From: a virus
Taxonomy: Duplodnaviria; Heunggongvirae; Uroviricota; Caudoviricetes
IMG/VR virus record: IMGVR_UViG_2541047952_000005
Span: 1-10,972 of that record
Direction: 5' to 3' (one strand)
Length of the DNA: 10,972 nucleotides
The notes under the pieces: model-generated
Database searches by the model: none
Told to the model about the DNA's origin: nothing
Seen by the model: only the letters and a program-made list of their open reading frames with translations
Translations under genes and position numbers: made by a program
Shown: positions 1-8,819 of the stretch, in pieces
How the letters are laid out: the number at the start of each line of letters is the position of its first letter
Position numbering within the stretch: position 1 is the stretch's first letter

Positions 1-834
1 ATGTCATCTTCCATCAAACAACAGATTAGAGATCGCAGCGAGTACATTGGTTTTATCGAAAAATGTTTTGCAAATGCGCATCAATGCTACGTTGTCCATT
101 ATTCATGTGAATCTTTTTATGATGCTGTGGGCGGTAAATCCACAAGGATCACCTCTATTGCTGTCAGAAATTTAGGCAGTGGGCAAACAGATCATTGGGC
201 TCTTAATAGATCCGCAGAATTATTAGGTCTTGATGTTTCAGATGAAAAAAATCTCGATATCCTTGAGCATCATCTATTAGATAACTACTTTACATTCCTG
301 AAAAGATACGCACAATGCACATTTCTGCATTGGAACATGCGAGATAACAATTACGGATTTCAGGCCTTACAGCATAGATTTTCAGTCCTAGGTGGCGAGC
401 CCTTTATACTTACTGATGACAGAAAACTCGATTTAGCGAGAGCTGCCGTTTCTATATATGGACGAAGCTATATTGGGCATACCGCCAAAAGTGGCCGTGC
501 AGGTAGAATGTTAGCTCTTGTTGAAAAAAATGGTATCGCTGATAAAGATGTCTTAGCCGGCGCTGAGGAAGCCGAGGCATATGTCAAAGGTAAGTATAGA
601 GAGCTAGAAATGTCTACATTACGAAAGGTCGACATACTCTGTAATATTGCTGAGCGGATTCATGATCGTACTCTCAAAACTAACAATAAATGGTTTTGGC
701 CAAGAAGCTGGCATCCATATTGGTTAACGATGAGGCTCAAAGAACACCCATTAGTGACTGGATTAATAGTTTTAGGGATTTTCTTAGGTGTAATTACCAA
801 AGGTCTAGATCTATATGCTTGGTGGCAGCAGTAA
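1..834 (+). CDS. hypothetical protein, 277 aa, with one predicted C-terminal transmembrane helix; function unknown
   Basis: ORF open from position 1 (ATG at 1-3; the true start could lie upstream of the window) to TAA at 832-834. C-terminal hydrophobic stretch LVTGLIVLGIFLGVITKGL suggests a membrane anchor. No family recognised by eye. Confidence 0.5.
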   Translation: MSSSIKQQIRDRSEYIGFIEKCFANAHQCYVVHYSCESFYDAVGGKSTRITSIAVRNLGSGQTDHWALNRSAELLGLDVSDEKNLDILEHHLLDNYFTFLKRYAQCTFLHWNMRDNNYGFQALQHRFSVLGGEPFILTDDRKLDLARAAVSIYGRSYIGHTAKSGRAGRMLALVEKNGIADKDVLAGAEEAEAYVKGKYRELEMSTLRKVDILCNIAERIHDRTLKTNNKWFWPRSWHPYWLTMRLKEHPLVTGLIVLGIFLGVITKGLDLYAWWQQ

Positions 835-2785: not shown

Positions 2786-4534
2786 ATGGAAAACTCTAAT
2801 AGCAATTTGATTGTAAAAATAGTTCATCTTCTACAATCCGAAAGAGATGGACTTATTTTTATTGATGGAAAATGGGGAACAGGTAAAACTTTTTTTATTA
2901 AAAATGTATTTCCTCGTTTTTATGATCTTAATGTGTTTTATTATATTTCATTACTAGGCGTTAAGTCTCTTGCAGATTTCAAAGCAAAGATTATTGACTG
3001 CTACTATCTTCAAGATATAGACACTCTTAAGTCTGGGTTAGATACTATTTCTGGTTTGGGTAGTGTAAGCAGTGGTTCTCCCGCTAGTGCCAATGTGCTT
3101 AATGGTGTGTTCAGTTCCATTGGTTCAAGTGTAAGAGAGAACATACTCTCCAAACTCAGTGGCATATTTATATTAGATGACATTGAGCGATTAAGCACTC
3201 CCTCACTGGCCAATGAAATACTAACTTATTGTCATTCGTTATATTCAACCTCAAAAATCTCTAGTTTGGATTTTATTGTTATATCTAATACATCTGCCGA
3301 ATCCCACCTGTCATTAGAACATAAAGAAAAAATTATTTCTGATTCACTTCATTACAACCCAAACCCTCGCGACATATTAGATATGAGAATAATTGAAGAA
3401 AAACTACAGTACTTCCCCACTGAAGACAAAATGATTTTCGAAGAAATAATATCATACCATAACATAGTTAACATAAGAATTTTAATGAGGTGTTTAAATA
3501 CTGCACTTCCATTATATTTACACGCAGAAAACCACCCTGAACTAGAGTGGAAAATCGCCTCTAAAACCATACTAAGCTCAATTTTGTCATATTTTATCTT
3601 GTTATTTATCCATAACAAATCCATGGACGAACTGATCATTGACAGCATCCAGCATATCCCACCCCAAAATTCCAGCAGCGATGAAAATCCACATGAACCG
3701 AGACTTTTGTCTACATTACACAATTATAAAATTAATATTCACCTTAAAAATTACTACAGTGGTCATGTTTCTCTTTATGATATATTGGACGATGTTTTTT
3801 ATGTGCCAACACCTTTAAGTACAATTGATATTGCAGTTTCAACTCGACCAGAACTACAGGAGACAGATGAAAAAGAATTTTTCCCCACGATTATTGGTTT
3901 AATTTCTAGAACAATACCATGTGATTTGCACCAATGGCTTAGGGCGGTTCAGAACTATGAATATTTGACTTATCATAAATATCTTCCAAAATCATCATTA
4001 CTAACATTGCAGTTCATGAGTTCTAAATCACTCGAATTTAGTGACGAGGACATTATTACTTACTTTGAATTTCATAACAACAATCCAATCAGTAGTTGGA
4101 CTAGTGGCTTTGATGATGGGAAACTTATATTTTCAATATTATCAGGCCGTCATAATAATATTGAAAAGAGAAAAAACTTAAAGACAATTAAGGAAATTAT
4201 TGAAACTGATGGTTGGGCTTTATTTGATGTTAACTTATTACTCAAATTAGATCCCATGGGAAACTATAAAACGCTAGAAGTACTTGGCGCACCATTTTTG
4301 ACCAAGTGCATTTTAAAAGAATGGAGCATTAAAGATATAGAGCAATTCAACGCTTTTTTAAGAAGTAATTATAGAATTAGTAACATATCTCAGTTTGCCA
4401 CAAATGAAAAGCAGCGCCTTATATACCTCAATCAAAAACTTGACATTTATTTCATAGGTAAGCAAGAAAGTTTTAAATATGGCGCGATATATGATTTAAA
4501 CAATACAGTAAGACACGCAATTTCTTGCCTATAA
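2786..4534 (+). CDS. KAP-family-like P-loop NTPase, 582 aa, AT-rich, horizontally acquired; candidate phage-exclusion/defence protein
   Basis: ATG at 2786 with AGGA upstream; TAA at 4532-4534. Walker A GKWGTGKT (aa 28-35) has the G-x-W-G-x-G-K-[ST] form typical of KAP NTPases; Walker B-like GIFILDDIERL about 100 aa later. The C-terminal roughly 430 aa are unrecognised and rich in N/I/K/S/Y. Composition visibly more AT-rich than all neighbours. Confidence 0.6.
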   Translation: MENSNSNLIVKIVHLLQSERDGLIFIDGKWGTGKTFFIKNVFPRFYDLNVFYYISLLGVKSLADFKAKIIDCYYLQDIDTLKSGLDTISGLGSVSSGSPASANVLNGVFSSIGSSVRENILSKLSGIFILDDIERLSTPSLANEILTYCHSLYSTSKISSLDFIVISNTSAESHLSLEHKEKIISDSLHYNPNPRDILDMRIIEEKLQYFPTEDKMIFEEIISYHNIVNIRILMRCLNTALPLYLHAENHPELEWKIASKTILSSILSYFILLFIHNKSMDELIIDSIQHIPPQNSSSDENPHEPRLLSTLHNYKINIHLKNYYSGHVSLYDILDDVFYVPTPLSTIDIAVSTRPELQETDEKEFFPTIIGLISRTIPCDLHQWLRAVQNYEYLTYHKYLPKSSLLTLQFMSSKSLEFSDEDIITYFEFHNNNPISSWTSGFDDGKLIFSILSGRHNNIEKRKNLKTIKEIIETDGWALFDVNLLLKLDPMGNYKTLEVLGAPFLTKCILKEWSIKDIEQFNAFLRSNYRISNISQFATNEKQRLIYLNQKLDIYFIGKQESFKYGAIYDLNNTVRHAISCL

Positions 4535-4657: not shown

Positions 4658-5926
4658 TCACCTGACAACGGGTAGATCAGAGAATCGGGTGGTGTAACGT
4701 GGAGAAAGTATTTCCCGTTTCATCTGCCACTGCTGCTGGATACCCTGTCCTGCAAAATACAGCGTCCCCCTCCCGCCTTTGGCATTGAGGTGATCCAGCA
4801 CTTCCATCAGTTTCTCACTGCCCGGGCGCGGCGCGTTATCATCGAACAAGTTGAGCTGAGCCACGCCCTGACTGAAGAAATCACCCAACATCACCCCGGC
4901 TTTCTGATACCGATATCCGTCTTGCCATATGGCGTCCAGACAGCGGATGGCTGCACTGATGATATCCCGACTGTCCTGCGTAGGCGTCAGAAGCTTCACG
5001 GAGGCATTATTGCCATAATAGGGCTCGTTCAGTGCGAACGGGCTGGTCTTCACAAACGCCGAGATAAAACGGCAATACTGGTGCTCGCCACGCAGTTTCT
5101 CTGCCGCCCGCGAGGCATAGCTGCAGATCGCCTGGCGCATCTCTTCATACTCCGTGATACGACCGCTAAAAGAGCGGGAACAGATAATTTCCTGTTTCAC
5201 TGGCGCGAATTCTTCCAGTGCCAGGCAGGGTTCTCCGCGTAACTCACGCACCGTTCGCTCCAGCACGACATTAAAATGTTTACGGATAAAACGGATGTCC
5301 GTATCAGCGAGTTGCAGTACGGTCTTGATCCCCATCGCCTCCAGTTTTTTCGAAATACGCCGACCGATGCCCCAGACTTCATCAACCGGCAGCGCGGCCA
5401 TCAGTTTGCGCTGGCGATCGACACTGGACAGGTCTACCACCCCGCCCGTCTGCCGCTGCCATTGTTTGGCCGCGTGGTTGGCCAGCTTGGCCAGCGTCTT
5501 GGTCTGGGCAATGCCAACACCCACTGTCAGATGCGTTCGCTGCAGAACAGTAGCACGGATTTCACGGCCAAAATCAGTCAGATCACGACAGTTACGTACA
5601 CCAGTGAGGTCACAAAATGCCTCGTCTATCGAGTAAATTTCACAGCGCGGCGACATTTCTTCCAGCGTGGTCATCACCCGGTTAGACATATCCGCATACA
5701 GCTCATAGTTGCTGCTGAAGCACACCACCCCATGGCGCCGGAAAAAGTCCTTCTGCCTGAAGTACGGCTCACCCATTTTGATACCCAGTTTCTTTGCCTC
5801 TGTGCTGCGGGCAATAACACAACCGTCATTGTTGGAAAGCACCACAACCGGCCTACCTTTGAGATCCGGGCGAAATACAGTTTCACAGGAGGCATAGAAC
5901 GAGTTCACATCACACAACGCGTACAT
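4658..5926 (-). CDS. umuC: UmuC, error-prone translesion DNA polymerase V catalytic subunit (Y-family)
   Basis: Near-full-length similarity to E. coli UmuC as recalled ([22 protein letters not shown]...[11 protein letters not shown]...[19 protein letters not shown]...[11 protein letters not shown]...). The track start at 5932 is a TTG; ATG at 5926-5924 matches the UmuC N-terminus and lies 2 nt after the umuD stop. Confidence 0.93.
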
Positions 5927-5928
5927 GA

Positions 5929-6348
5929 TCAACCCGTCGATTTCACGATGAACGTCACCACACCAAAAACATCGAGCGTTTCTTCGCTCCCGATGATGAT
6001 AGGCGACCAGGCGCGGTTTTCAGGGTTAAGCTGGACAGTTGGCCATAACTGTAGGCGCTTAACGGTAAATTCCCCGTCCACCGCAGCAATAACGATATCG
6101 CCGTGCTCTGCCTTGCGTGAACTGTCCACTACCAGTAAATCGCCTTCGCCGATCCCGGCATCAATCATCGAGTCACCAGATGCCTTAACGAAGTACGTGG
6201 CGCTGGGGTGTTGTATCAGTAGCTCGTTAAGATCGATACGCTGTTCAACGTAGTCCTGAGCAGGGCTTGGGAAACCACAGGGTACAAGATCGCCATAGAG
6301 TGGAAGCGGCTGCACTGCACGCAACCCGGAGGGAGTGAAAAACTGCAT
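5929..6348 (-). CDS. umuD: UmuD, LexA-like S24 self-cleaving accessory subunit of Pol V
   Basis: Cleavage-site context VPCGFPSPA, active-site FVKASGDSM and TVKRL lysine region are all present, resembling E. coli UmuD. The track start at 6363 is a TTG; ATG at 6348 (MQFFTPSGL...) aligns with the UmuD N-terminus and has GGTGA 5 nt upstream. ATG at 6351 is an alternative. Confidence 0.93.
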
Positions 6349-6367
6349 CATAATCACCGTCAATTAA

Positions 6368-6387
6368 TACTGATATTATATACAGTA
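6368..6387. promoter_or_regulatory. LexA (SOS) box upstream of umuD
   Basis: TACTGATATTATATACAGTA, i.e. CTG-N10-CAG with an AT-rich centre, close to the consensus TACTGTATATATATACAGTA; 20 bp upstream of the umuD start. Confidence 0.8.
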
Positions 6388-6455: not shown

Positions 6456-7007
6456 TTACCTGGTTGCCGGAAATTTTTTATATAGCGTCGATATCCCAAC
6501 ATCGTAAATTAATGCCACACGCTGTCGTGATTCACCTGCTGCAACCAACCTTCCTGCCTGCGCCCACTGTTCATCAGTTAGCTTTGATCGACGCCCACCT
6601 ATTCGCCCTTCTTCACGAGCCGCAGCCAATCCCGCCCTGGTACGTTCGACTATCAGCTCCCTTTCCATTTCGGCAAGTGCGCCCATGACATGGAAGAAAA
6701 AGCGTCCCATTGGTGAAGACGTATCTATGCTGTCGGTCAGGCTGCGAAAGTTAATACCCTTTTCCCGAAGCTCCTCCACCAAAACGACAAGATGCCGCAT
6801 GCTGCGACCGAGTCGATCCAGTTTCCAGACCACCAGCGTATCGCCTTCAGACAGAGTCCTGAGTACTTTCTTCAACCCCGGTCGGTCAGACGTTCTGCCG
6901 CTGATCTTATCCTCGAATATCAGTTCACATCCTGCGCACTCCAGTGCGTTTCGTTGCAATGCGGTGTTCTGGTCATTTGTTGACACACGTACATAACCGA
7001 TGAGCAT
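6456..7007 (-). CDS. serine-recombinase DNA invertase (Pin/Gin/Hin/Cin family)
   Basis: MLIGYVRVSTNDQNT... (catalytic Ser in VRVST), ...DTLVVWKLDRLGRS..., ...SPMGRFFFHVMGALAEMERELI..., C-terminal HTH ...ALIYDVGISTLYKK; close to E. coli e14 PinE as recalled. ATG at 7007 with AGGGG upstream. Lies immediately outside the invertible segment. Confidence 0.93.
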   Translation of the reverse strand: MLIGYVRVSTNDQNTALQRNALECAGCELIFEDKISGRTSDRPGLKKVLRTLSEGDTLVVWKLDRLGRSMRHLVVLVEELREKGINFRSLTDSIDTSSPMGRFFFHVMGALAEMERELIVERTRAGLAAAREEGRIGGRRSKLTDEQWAQAGRLVAAGESRQRVALIYDVGISTLYKKFPATR

Positions 7008-7073
7008 GAGAAATACCCCTGTAAAAAGCCGGGATCATGCCATCTGAGCGGAATAACTGCATTTTCTAAAAGG

Positions 7074-7094
7074 TTGGTTTGGGAGAAGCCAGAT
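7074..7094. repeat. inverted repeat / recombination crossover site, invertase-proximal
   Basis: TTGGTTTGGGAGAAGCCAGAT is the exact reverse complement of 8510-8530 (21/21). Embedded in a 26-bp imperfectly palindromic site 7062-7087, TTTTCTAAAAGG TT GGTTTGGGAGAA, resembling gix/hix-type sites. Confidence 0.8.
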
Positions 7095-7417
7095 ATGTCA
7101 TTCAGCGAGGAGCTAATGTCAATGGAGCATGGATACGCTGGTCAGATGGTGCAATAGAAGTATTTGGAACTGGTGGTTCCAATGATAATGGGCTGGCTAA
7201 AGTCGTTTATCCAATTGCACTACCTAAGCTTTCACGTTTTATCAGCATAGCGGAAAGAATAAGAACAGATTACGAGGCCACACCTAATAACGTTCACGTT
7301 TCAATGATCGTGGATGACCAGGTCAGTAATACAGGTTTTTATGTCCGCTGCCAGATGTACGACGGAAGACCATCAACAAGTGCTTTTTCCTGGAGAGTTT
7401 ATTGTGCGCCTGTTTAA
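7076..7417 (+). CDS. silent alternative tail-fibre C-terminal cassette (about 113 codons), no start of its own
   Basis: Reading from the crossover core: GLGEARYVIQRGANVNGAWIRWSDGAIEVFGTGG...RVYCAPV, TAA at 7415-7417. Its first codons (GLGEAR) duplicate, in inverted orientation, the fibre sequence at the other crossover site, so inversion would give an in-frame fibre of about 210 aa. The track's 7079 start is a TTG inside the repeat. Confidence 0.6.
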   Translation, partial: GLGEARYVIQRGANVNGAWIRWSDGAIEVFGTGGSNDNGLAKVVYPIALPKLSRFISIAERIRTDYEATPNNVHVSMIVDDQVSNTGFYVRCQMYDGRPSTSAFSWRVYCAPV

Positions 7418-7601
7418 TCCTGTTACTTTGACTGAAGTAATCCCCGGTCTTCATGACGTGACCGGGGCTGTGGAATTACCAGAAGATAACTGGTTTTTTA
7501 CTGCATCTGAAATCCCTGAAGGAATGGAAATATCTGTTAACGAGAAGGGCGAACCCATTCTGATTGAGATTAAACCATCTCAGGTGGAACTGGCCAGATA
7601 A
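7404..7601 (+). CDS. small ORF (65 aa) paired with the silent cassette; possible alternative fibre chaperone, unverified
   Basis: GTG at 7404 with GGAGAG 6 nt upstream; TAA at 7599-7601. Its position immediately after the silent cassette mirrors the tfa position after the active cassette. No recognisable Tfa motif. Confidence 0.35.
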   Translation: MRLFNPVTLTEVIPGLHDVTGAVELPEDNWFFTASEIPEGMEISVNEKGEPILIEIKPSQVELAR

Positions 7602-7836
7602 CCCCCGGCGCGGTGCTGGTATCTGCTTCCATCACCGCGTCGATATTACCAACATCATATTCAGTCATTTCCGGTTCCGGTGGTGCTATAAACTCTCCGT
7701 CAGAATAGAACCAACCGACGCCTGCATCTATATGATCAACATTTATAATTTCGCAATTAGAGAATAAATCACCCTCTCCATCCCAGATAATAATATTTTT
7801 CACCACGCCATGTTCAATCAGAGCAAAATTACTCAT
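7570..7836 (-). CDS. tail-fibre assembly protein (Tfa-like chaperone), 88 aa
   Basis: C-terminus ...EADTSTAPGVIWPVPPEMV resembles the conserved C-terminal motif of lambda-type Tfa proteins as recalled. Start ATG overlaps the fibre stop (TGATG). Shorter than typical Tfa, so possibly internally deleted. Confidence 0.65.
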   Translation of the reverse strand: MSNFALIEHGVVKNIIIWDGEGDLFSNCEIINVDHIDAGVGWFYSDGEFIAPPEPEMTEYDVGNIDAVMEADTSTAPGVIWPVPPEMV

Positions 7837-8819
7837 CAGGCATACTCCTCAACAATAACTATTCCCGGGGCACCGTCACCTCCCGATTGAGCCTCACTTC
7901 CAGCAGGTGCGCAGGCTCCGCCTCCGCCAGCACCAAAGCCCTCAGCTTTACCACCACCACGTCCTCTGAATGATGAAGAACTTGCACCACCTATACCGCC
8001 TGAACCTAATGGTGTATCCCCCCCGGTACCACCTGCTACAGCTTTAACAGAGATAACCATTGCTCCTGGTGTTTTTGCACTACAGCGAAATGCTCTTAGT
8101 ACAGTGCCGGACGATGTCGGACTGGCACCCCATGAAATACCCTGAATATATGATGTGTTTGCAGATGCTCCCCCCGCGCCACCGCCTGTACCACCAGGTG
8201 CAGTTATCATGGAACCGAAATAAGTTGTGCCACCTTCACTACCTGAATTTCTTCCGGCTCCCCCCCCTTTACCTGCAGCACCGATAATAACGTTGACTTC
8301 GAAATCATTATCAACCTCGAAAAATGCTTCAATAAATGCGCCGCTCAATCCAGCTCCGGCTGTTGCCTGCTGATTTTCTGTTGTTTCAGGAACCCCACCG
8401 CCGCCGCCGCCACCACCAGAGGCAATGACCCTTATCTTTTTTGTCCCTGGTGTTGGGATATATTTTCCAGAGCTTTTAAAAATATTCGTGTTTAACAAAC
8501 GACCAGAGAATCTGGCTTCTCCCAAACCAAGGTTTTCGAGAGCCGTTTTCACCGTGCCGTCCGATTTGATATCGCCAAACGGATTCTTGCGGCTTAACAG
8601 CAGCGCACGAAGCGCGGTAAGCAGCTGGTCATGCCGCCCCTTCTCCAGGCTGGCACCGGACGCCTCCACCACGCTACAAAGTTCTTCCTGCAACATATCA
8701 AAATAGTCATCATCCAGATCGGTGGCAGGTGTGCCGGTCTGGGGGTTACCACGGGTAAAACCGTTCTTACCCGCGCCGAACTTATCCTTCTGCGCGGTTT
8801 TCGTGTCTATGCGATGCAT
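7836..8819 (-). CDS. phage tail-fibre protein, 327 aa: conserved N-terminal about 97 aa plus glycine-rich C-terminal domain in the current orientation
   Basis: ATG at 8819-8817 with GGAG upstream. N-terminus [21 protein letters not shown]... is of the e14/Mu-like side-tail-fibre type. The C-terminal 230 aa lie inside the invertible segment and are Gly-rich (GGGGGGGG, GGTGGGAGG, GAGGGGA). Confidence 0.88.
8510..8530. repeat. inverted repeat / recombination crossover site inside the tail-fibre gene
   Basis: ATCTGGCTTCTCCCAAACCAA, partner of 7074-7094. The 26-bp site 8517-8542, TTCTCCCAAACC AA GGTTTTCGAGAG, has palindromic half-sites and lies at fibre codons about 94-102 (ENLGLGEA). Confidence 0.8.

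Follow-up and report, generated by a model that had tools for sequence, protein, structure and literature searches.

A probable invertase-driven switch between two unrelated tail-fibre tips in an e14-type invertible segment

INTRODUCTION

Among the described inversion systems, the one closest to the locus considered here is the P segment of prophage e14 of Escherichia coli K-12 (pinE, stfP/tfaP, stfE/tfaE). Inversion of this segment was shown experimentally; it is flipped by PinE and PinQ and locked in pin mutants. Our locus shares with it the sites, the invertase and the constant fibre region, the layout of two convergent units (each a cassette with a small ORF) that meet at a conserved central joint, and the upstream baseplate genes (ymfQ, gp47-like, gp46-like). 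The differences are in the contents: neither cassette shows sequence relationship to those of K-12; ORFs of 88 and 65 aa follow them, in place of the 200-aa TfaE and the 137-aa TfaP; the segment measures 1455 bp rather than 1797 bp; also, it resides in a complete-looking prophage next to ssrA, whereas K-12 e14 is a 15-kb remnant at icd. Since the cassettes are unlike those of K-12, and the small-ORF match is limited to 22 aa of the 88-aa ORF, we regard the segment as a different allele of the e14-type segment.

The G segment of phage Mu (Gin, gix, S/U, S′/U′) follows the same logic: a constant fibre N-terminus is completed by one of two C-termini. As in our locus, each C-terminus has its own downstream assembly gene (a putative one in our case), and the invertase gene lies just outside the segment. 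The Mu segment is ∼3 kb long, its constant part is much longer and its alternative tips are alike in size and kind. The Hin/hix system of Salmonella flagellar phase variation likewise uses two 26-bp imperfectly palindromic sites and a small serine invertase; however, Hin flips a promoter, while in the present locus coding sequence is exchanged. The Hin invertase gene is inside its segment; ours is outside.

The same segment, 98–100% identical and with the same inner half-sites, is found in P2-like E. coli prophages (e.g. EPEC E2348/69), where it sits between a gpH-like fibre gene and the tail sheath gene, next to an invertase 84–85% identical to ours; inversion in these prophages was demonstrated by sequencing. 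They differ in a much longer gpH-type constant N-terminus (fibres of 463 and 580 aa) and belong to another virion lineage. For cyanophage Pam3, with its tail fibre gp24 and chaperone gp25, the paper describes no inversion; the likeness lies in the gp24-type tip, while the 88-aa ORF of our locus shows a Tfa-type C-terminus.

A preliminary description made from the sequence had assigned the locus to the Mu G-segment/e14 P-segment mechanism, and the e14 sites, the intact Gin/Pin invertase and the in-frame swap bear this assignment out. The locus is the known e14/Mu-type switch; its mechanism is textbook knowledge, and the sole undescribed element is the pair of tips.

RESULTS

Inverted repeat and crossover sites

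The window, i.e. the whole stretch of DNA analysed, comprises 10 972 nt of virus record IMGVR_UViG_2541047952_000005. An inverted-repeat finder reported arms at 7065–7094 and 8510–8539 (30 nt, 90% complementary); they contain a perfect 21-bp inverted repeat, with left arm 7074–7094 and right arm 8510–8530, which was read from the sequence and re-checked. By our own estimate, 11 kb of sequence would contain a perfect 21-bp inverted repeat by chance ∼1e-5 times. The 14-mer TTCTCCCAAACCAA has exactly two copies in the window, inverted and both at the repeat arms; no third copy of it was found in the window even with 3 mismatches allowed. A third crossover site, as in multi-segment switches such as Min or the three-repeat locus of EPEC, is thus absent from the window.

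With the 26-bp site defined as in the literature on Hin/hix-type systems, the invertase-proximal crossover site occupies 7062–7087 (TTTTCTAAAAGG-TT-GGTTTGGGAGAA, central dinucleotide 7074–7075) and the fibre-internal one 8517–8542 (TTCTCCCAAACC-AA-GGTTTTCGAGAG, central dinucleotide 8529–8530). The half-sites match each other at 7/12 positions in the former and at 9/12 in the latter, thus both sites are imperfect palindromes; they are in inverted orientation and have the central AA/TT dinucleotide in common. The preliminary description, a 21-bp perfect inverted repeat inside 26-bp imperfectly palindromic hix-like sites, was correct to the base.

The sites were compared with those known from e14, the reference being the K-12 genome itself together with the published e14 repeat, TTGGTTTGGGAGAAGG, as quoted in PMC12529663. 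The fibre-internal site is identical to the K-12 stfP site, taken as reverse complement, at 26/26 positions; the invertase-proximal site agrees with the K-12 e14 pin-proximal site at 23/26 and also conforms to the family consensus TTCYCCCAAACC-AA-SSTTTWAGAAAA. It is located 68 bp from the invertase start, the modal distance in the family, and site type and position are kept in at least 30 relatives. The fibre site had been placed at about codon 97, and its central dinucleotide does fall in codon 97 (Leu, CTT). The second site had been placed just downstream of the invertase start, which holds in plus-strand coordinates only; the site in fact lies in the intergenic region, upstream (5′) of the start codon (7007) by 55–80 bp.

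The invertible segment in both orientations

The invertible segment (7076–8528) measures 1455 bp between the centres of the two sites. After in silico inversion of 7074–8530, all 10 972 bases of the window match the chromosome of E. coli Res13-Sevr-PER07-33 (NZ_CP062811.1) with 0 mismatches. Furthermore, UC4315 and UC4316, laboratory derivatives of strain UC4224 that carry the segment in a P2-like prophage, differ over 9415 bases solely by inversion of this segment. Closed chromosomes thus show both orientations in otherwise identical DNA, among them two derivatives of one parent. The preliminary description had called for a search for the two orientations, and these public genomes supply them: inversion of the segment does happen. 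Any boundary chosen within the repeat gives 0 mismatches; therefore, the comparison does not show where in the 21-bp identity the crossover took place. Breaks at this crossover site are seen in many draft contigs.

Invertase gene, candidate enhancer and promoter

The minus-strand gene at 6456–7007 codes for a 183-aa serine DNA invertase of the Pin/Gin family (Pfam Resolvase, E 7e-51, and HTH_7, E 8e-13). The protein aligns over its full length with the Mu Gin structures 3UJ3/4M6F (E 1e-91), is 87% identical to K-12 PinE and ∼80% identical to Mu Gin over full length, and carries Ser9, R7 and the DRLGRS motif. It is intact and of the Gin/Pin type, as had been proposed. Fis-dependent invertases are marked by residues that contact Fis and the enhancer, in Hin R43, K47, K/R48, K/R51, Q151, R154 and L155; all equivalents are conserved in our invertase (R42, K46, K47, R50, Q150, R153 and L154).

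The Hin enhancer lies in the 5′ part of the invertase gene, at a distance of ∼100 bp from the closer of the two sites. A candidate recombinational enhancer is likewise placed in our locus, at 6913–6986 (minus strand), within ∼100 nt of the gene's beginning. Its two conserved blocks, 6966–6986 and 6913–6938, have centres ∼49 bp apart, the first block being ∼96 bp from the crossover core; this spacing agrees with the geometry of the Hin enhancer. Synonymous codon identity was 0.56 in invertase codons 2–35 as against 0.39 in the others (P = 1.5e-6); the 34-codon window with the highest synonymous conservation begins at codon 3. The extra synonymous constraint and the spacing are consistent with an enhancer in the 5′-end of the gene, to which Fis would bind by comparison with the family.

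Of 31 distinct pin-family loci, 18 have the motif TGGCATGATCCCGGC where it stands here, at 7028–7042 (minus strand), 35 nt upstream of the invertase start. A two-hexamer sigma-70 promoter scan upstream of the invertase gave nothing; the conserved TGGCAT motif was recovered solely through comparison of loci. It is probably the pin promoter, of the extended -10 type. A sigma-54 reading of TGGCAT-N7-GC is less likely, as the predicted transcript start would land in the ribosome-binding site.

The fibre gene: one constant part and two tips

The tail-fibre ORF (7836–8819, minus strand) codes in its present form for 327 aa, 97 + 230. The baseplate-proximal N-terminus, codons 1–97 (8529–8819, minus strand), is the constant part; it is identical to K-12 StfP at 100 of 101 residues (99%) and is 98–100% identical to the N-terminus of the ‘short tail fiber’ of Shigella phages SfIV, SfI, SfII and SfV. 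Cassette A (7836–8528, minus strand), currently expressed, codes for a 230-aa TNF-like and glycine-rich tip; cassette B (7076–7417, plus strand), currently silent, codes for a compact 113-aa beta-sandwich tip. After inversion the fibre frame runs on into 7076–7414, giving 97 + 113 = 210 aa, and both junctions encode N-L-G-L-G-E-A. The suggested in-frame swap of a 230-aa Gly-rich C-terminus for a compact 113-aa one can be read directly from the frames; moreover, the 210-aa form is an annotated CDS in the twin record NZ_CP062811.1. The silent cassette has no upstream extension, with an in-frame TAA at 7067–7069; it is left with a single candidate start, a TTG at 7079 that lies within the site and lacks an obvious ribosome-binding site.

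The models of both cassettes are confident and correspond to known receptor-binding fibre tips. Cassette A is predicted to have the TNF-like sandwich and the lattice of glycine-rich loops of Pam3 gp24-type tips (Pfam Gly_rich_2), and cassette B the C-terminal beta-sandwich tip domain of gp53 and R-type pyocin fibres (Pfam Gp53-like_C). The models support a role in host range, with host range itself reached by inference. Neither the fibre nor the cassettes nor the small ORFs had a match in NCBIfam. The compact cassette B had been expected to be the StfP tip; this was ruled out, as comparison of the cassettes with the C-termini of K-12 StfP and StfE gave no significant similarity.

The cassette pair had also been called unusually asymmetric. 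This view did not survive comparison: K-12 e14 itself pairs tips of ∼112 and 165 aa, and the pair described here recurs in 27 complete E. coli genomes. The difference in size simply reflects two unrelated folds.

Small downstream ORFs and the central joint

Each cassette is followed by a small ORF. The 88-aa ORF (7570–7836, minus strand) is coupled to cassette A via a TGATG stop/start overlap and accompanies it in other genomes. Its hit among the PHROG families is phrog_14370, and Pfam gave none; over the final 22 aa it shares 73% identity with the C-terminus of TfaE, and only this stretch resembles TfaE/TfaP. Judged by this similarity, it is probably a miniature tail-fibre assembly chaperone. 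The 65-aa ORF (7404–7601, plus strand) has a 14-nt overlap with cassette B, which it accompanies in other genomes, and is an annotated CDS in the NZ_CP062811.1 twin. It matches phrog_5400 (function not known) with E 5e-23 and, weakly, the tail-fibre-assembly family phrog_188; searches of Pfam and NCBIfam gave no match to it. It may be an assembly factor.

The overlap of these convergent ORFs, at 7592–7641, forms a conserved central joint, the boundary between the half-cassettes. It is 88% identical to the tfaP/tfaE overlap of K-12, and half-segment matches in other genomes begin or stop at it.

Distribution and host prophage

The same cassette pair is present in 27 of 5426 complete E. coli genomes, and in 26 of these 27 it is 98–100% identical. 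At least 12 more contigs encode the exact 327-aa fibre in the same gene neighbourhood. A tblastn search of 50 697 phage records with the Gly-rich fibre matched only the constant N-terminus; part of the cassette may be hidden by the low-complexity filter of BLAST, so a profile-type search was used instead.

In NZ_CP062811.1 the prophage adjoins ssrA and contains genes for integrase, regulation, lysis, terminase, head, tail and baseplate, and none of the structural ones is a pseudogene; from its gene content it looks complete, from integrase to tail. Its right end is heavy with cargo and also bears an IS3 element. Elsewhere, some genomes have these cassettes frameshifted or flagged as pseudogenes.

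DISCUSSION

An invertase-driven switch between two fibre tips is the best explanation overall, and we consider it very probable. The Pin/Gin-family invertase would recombine the two inverted 26-bp sites and turn over 1455 bp, while the first 97 fibre codons would stay put, read from the late operon. In the orientation of the window the constant part would continue into the TNF-like, glycine-rich tip, followed by the putative 88-aa mini-chaperone; in the other orientation it would continue into the gp53/pyocin-like tip, followed by the 65-aa ORF. As the tip depends on orientation, virions from different cells of one lysogenic culture would carry either tip, and the switch between two receptor-binding tips would act as bet-hedging in host range. 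In the Hin/Gin/Cin/Pin class, inversion depends on Fis and on a supercoiled substrate. By analogy with the family, the invertase would cut the sites at their central AA/TT dinucleotide, Fis bound to an enhancer in the 5′ part of its gene would stimulate the reaction, and host range would be affected.

One could argue that both orientations arose by RecA-dependent recombination between short repeats, or by assembly error, rather than by site-specific recombination. The crossover indeed lies somewhere within a 21-bp identity, and short inverted repeats can confuse assemblers, in line with the draft contigs breaking at this place. However, for homologous recombination a repeat of 21 bp is very short, and this one falls on two canonical invertase sites beside an intact invertase; the two orientations occur in closed chromosomes (the two derivatives of UC4224 included), and in experiments PinE and PinQ turn over the homologous e14 segment, which is locked in pin mutants. 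This origin is hardly credible. A different question is whether a genuine switch has any consequence. If no infectious particles were made, the alternation of tips would be a relic, as in the defective e14 of K-12. The cargo and IS3 element crowding the right prophage end, the damaged or pseudogene-flagged cassettes of some genomes and the lack of the Gly-rich cassette in any recorded free phage (tblastn, 50 697 records) point that way. Yet the twin record has its complete gene set with undamaged structural genes, the window keeps both cassettes, both small ORFs and the invertase intact, and the near identity of the pair in all but one of the carrier genomes also speaks against decay; we find a relic unlikely.

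The switch could also serve the lysogen and not the virion, one orientation yielding a cell-associated tip protein that blocks adsorption of other phages. Such a role was published for the homologous e14 segment with the same sites (StfE2, after inversion by PinQ), and gene callers report free-standing ORFs of the silent cassette in many genomes. In our locus, though, the silent cassette is blocked upstream by the TAA and is left with the TTG as its sole start candidate, and the cassettes are unrelated to those of K-12. That the switch works for the lysogen instead of the virion is therefore very doubtful, and alternation of tips on virions is the reading we retain.

The value of these results lies mainly in annotation and in a clean natural example; understanding of the mechanism is unchanged. 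The K-12 P segment would be a decayed copy of a switch still working in complete SfV-like prophages, and the same 1.45-kb module, sites included, is common to P2-like prophages. Its two alternating receptor-binding tips have unrelated predicted folds, one of them including the rare glycine-rich lattice otherwise known from Pam3, T-even gp38 adhesins and human ALK. The module explains ORFs labelled ‘hypothetical protein’ or ‘glycine-rich domain-containing protein’ beside invertases, as well as genes called ‘stfP pseudogene’ and the breaking of contigs in draft assemblies.

One could speculate further that, besides diversifying virions, the locus acts as a phase-variable shield of the lysogen and that the whole unit is portable between P2-like and SfV-like myovirus lineages; we regard this combination as quite improbable. 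Candidates for a shield would be the glycine-rich tip or a free-standing silent cassette, StfE2 of K-12 e14 being the precedent. A portable module would consist of the two half-cassettes, the sites and the invertase, moved by recombination at the conserved joints.

Both orientations of the segment in public genomes

We searched 5,426 complete E. coli genomes and saw one match that was 100% identical over the exact query length, yet just 69% of it was covered on one strand. This locus, in E. coli Res13-Sevr-PER07-33 (NZ_CP062811.1), was compared with the window base by base. After positions 7074-8530 were reverse-complemented, the two sequences were the same at all 10,972 positions; with this segment left unflipped, 1,013 fewer positions agreed. 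NZ_CP062811.1 is annotated with a fibre of 210 aa and, on the opposite strand, a separate ORF for the Gly-rich part. The exact 327-aa form of the fibre is encoded on at least 12 further public contigs, with shared neighbours (baseplate genes, the invertase, umuDC-like genes and the KAP NTPase).

An independent replicate came from UC4315 and UC4316, both described as mutants of UC4224, with the same segment in a P2-like prophage: over 9,415 bases, an exact inversion between the same sites is the sole difference. Furthermore, junction-specific searches found both arrangements repeatedly among segment-carrying genomes. The segment occurs in two orientations, as the preliminary description had proposed to verify in reads; its anatomy, the intact enzyme and the in-frame exchange were likewise observed.

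In draft assemblies (Citrobacter, Scandinavium, Kluyvera, Intestinirhabdus, Mixta and others; upstream ends of comparison loci L006, L007, L014, L017, L019, L020, L028, L030, L038 and others), contigs end within the invertase-proximal crossover site or directly at it. As assemblers break contigs when reads hold both orientations, activity is probable for many of these switches.

Crossover sites and invertase gene

A repeat finder returned one outstanding inverted repeat in the window (arms 7065-7094 and 8510-8539, 30 nt, 90% complementary). Reading of the sequence bore out its perfect 21-bp core (7074-7094 and 8510-8530), for which we estimate a chance expectation of ∼1e-5 in 11 kb, as well as the 26-bp sites described around it: the invertase-proximal site at 7062-7087, TTTTCTAAAAGG-TT-GGTTTGGGAGAA, and the fibre-internal site at 8517-8542, TTCTCCCAAACC-AA-GGTTTTCGAGAG. 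The 14-mer made of the inner half-site and core has exactly two copies in the window, with no third copy there even when three mismatches are allowed.

The published e14 repeat is TTGGTTTGGGAGAAGG (PMC12529663). Against the K-12 genome, the fibre-internal site is identical to the site within stfP at 26 of 26 positions and the invertase-proximal site matches the pin-proximal site at 23 of 26; the comparison with characterised sites thus favoured the original reading. Among pin relatives, gathered from one genome per species, the proximal-site consensus is TTCYCCCAAACC-AA-SSTTTWAGAAAA, and the distance from core to start codon is exactly 68 bp in most loci, the window included. The left-hand site had been placed just downstream of the invertase start; this was wrong, as it lies upstream of the start codon, 55 bp from it.

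The invertase ORF (183 aa; 6456-7007, minus strand) has Resolvase and HTH_7 domains and aligns over its whole length with solved Mu Gin structures (∼80% identity, Ser9 present); these domains, Ser9 and 87% identity to K-12 PinE confirm it as Pin-type. A study of Hin listed the residues separating Fis/enhancer-dependent invertases from resolvases (Hin R43, K47, K/R48, K/R51, Q151, R154 and L155); all have equivalents here (R42, K46, K47, R50, Q150, R153 and L154).

Across 31 distinct invertase genes, mean synonymous codon identity is 0.56 for codons 2-35 and 0.39 elsewhere (Mann-Whitney p = 1.5e-6), and the 34-codon window with the best synonymous conservation begins at codon 3. Gene nt 22-42 and nt 70-95 form two blocks in which conservation extends to the third codon position; they are spaced ∼49 bp centre to centre, with the first ∼96 bp away from the crossover core. 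This fits the Hin arrangement, where the proximal Fis site is ∼100 bp from hixL. The pattern is consistent with a candidate recombinational enhancer embedded in the 5′-end of the invertase gene.

Of 31 distinct pin-family loci, 18 carry the conserved motif TGGCATGATCCCGGC (7028-7042, minus strand, in the window) at a constant 35 nt before the invertase start. It could be either an extended -10 promoter or a sigma-54-like -24/-12 element; locus L038 carries the full TGGCAC-N5-TTGCT consensus at this motif. At two other comparison loci, L023 (E. coli) and L024 (Shigella flexneri), a 17-C run replaces the crossover site ∼60 nt upstream of the invertase match at 4001, and the pin homologue is cut short at 146 aa, which has the appearance of a decayed switch.

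Fibre gene and exchangeable cassettes

The ORF list has a 327-aa fibre ORF (7836-8819, minus strand) with the right-hand core inside codon 97, and a silent ORF within the segment (7076-7414, plus strand) that reads G-L-G-E-A-R-Y...; therefore the proposed position of the fibre-gene site, at about codon 97, and the in-frame swap of a 230-aa for a 113-aa C-terminus were both correct. Fibre residues 1-101 are 99% identical to StfP, and the N-terminus is 98-100% identical to that of the ‘short tail fiber’ of Shigella phages SfIV, SfI, SfII and SfV.

As judged from predicted folds, the switch alternates two receptor-binding tips of unrelated fold, which explains the difference in cassette size. A small ORF, translationally coupled, comes after each cassette. 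Of TfaE, the 88-aa ORF (7570-7836, minus strand) retains only the conserved final 22 residues (73% identity); the 65-aa ORF (7404-7601, plus strand) has a match to a PHROG of unknown function and a weak one to a Tfa PHROG. By position and by the precedents of Mu, e14 and Pam3, both may be chaperones.

The complete segment is present at 95-100% identity in 27 of the 5,426 genomes (at ≥98% in 26 of the 27). Since the pair recurs in these genomes and K-12 itself pairs cassettes of ∼112 and ∼165 aa, the view of this pair as unusually asymmetric did not hold. In most cases the copy belongs to a P2-like prophage, where it is flanked by the genes for the gpH-like fibre and the sheath; the invertase next to it shares 84-85% identity with that of the window.

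Each half-segment is also found without the other, in pairs with different cassettes that bear ordinary tail-fibre assembly genes. Half-segment matches in other genomes break exactly at segment positions ∼498-547 (window 7592-7641), the ∼50-bp overlap of the convergent small ORFs; this suggests a joint where recombination shuffles cassettes. This stretch is 88% identical to the K-12 tfaP/tfaE overlap (locus L004, 5536-5585), the cassettes themselves being unrelated. The segment is therefore built from two exchangeable halves, each with a conserved site outside and a conserved joint inside.

Several side-effects of the switch on annotation were seen (loci L002, 9051-9353; L003, 5560-7298; L001, 7680-8369): in ECE228, a fibre marked as an incomplete stfP pseudogene; in strain C21, a Gly-rich cassette that differs by 4 bp in length and has a truncated CDS; a silent cassette called a free-standing hypothetical or ‘glycine-rich domain-containing’ protein.

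Mechanism and relation to known systems

The classical invertase account is the best-supported explanation. The invertase would bind both sites and synapse them at a Fis-bound enhancer; after a cut at the central dinucleotide, one half of the complex would rotate, so that the constant fibre part becomes joined to the alternative cassette with its small ORF. The predicted cleavage position, Fis dependence and host-range change follow the family and the folds of the two tips. Homologous recombination or assembly error could be invoked for the two orientations, but closed genomes, canonical sites and the published locking of e14 orientation in pinE and pinE pinQ mutants make this unlikely.

A switch acting in the lysogen as an adsorption block has been published for e14 StfE2; we do not favour it for this locus, since an in-frame stop (7067-7069) closely precedes the silent cassette, which is without evident start signals. 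It is also possible that the window holds a relic switch in a non-productive prophage, a reading that we favour less than a classical invertase switch since the gene set is complete. The prophage of NZ_CP062811.1 is ∼42 kb and complete-looking, in the order integrase, regulation, lysis, terminase, head, sheath, tube, tape measure, baseplate, fibre and invertase.

The mechanism itself is long known. The preliminary description had named that of the Mu G and e14 P segments, and the e14-type sites, the invertase and both orientations bear this out; the switch operates in the manner of the Mu G, P1 C and e14 P inversions. By sites, invertase and constant region the locus belongs to the e14 P segment family, but its cassettes and genomic setting mark it as a different allele. 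A published survey detected prophage inversions of this kind systematically in E. coli; we found no description in the literature of this pair of cassettes, nor of its presence in both SfV-like and P2-like prophages.

Prophage setting and cargo

Upstream of the fibre lie Mu gp48-like (YmfQ), baseplate J and gp46 genes; after the fibre and invertase, NZ_CP062811.1 has cargo genes, then ssrA. The last gene before ssrA is a 277-aa ORF without Pfam match (window 1-834). An IS3-family element (1075-2311), with a two-ORF frameshifted transposase and imperfect 42-nt terminal inverted repeats (1075-1116 and 2270-2311), adjoins a remnant of an SOS-response-associated peptidase gene (∼2370-2710; a pseudogene in NZ_CP062811.1). 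A umuD/umuC-like operon (4658-6387) directly adjoins the invertase as prophage cargo: UmuC-like at 4658-5932 and UmuD-like at 5929-6348 or -6363, both on the minus strand, preceded by a canonical LexA box, TACTGTATATAATATCAGTA (6368-6387). A KAP-family P-loop NTPase gene (582 aa; 2786-4534) has 31-36% GC against 48-58% in the surrounding region, and a second KAP NTPase is found in the same prophage near the lysis genes (NZ_CP062811.1, 1199633-1200964).
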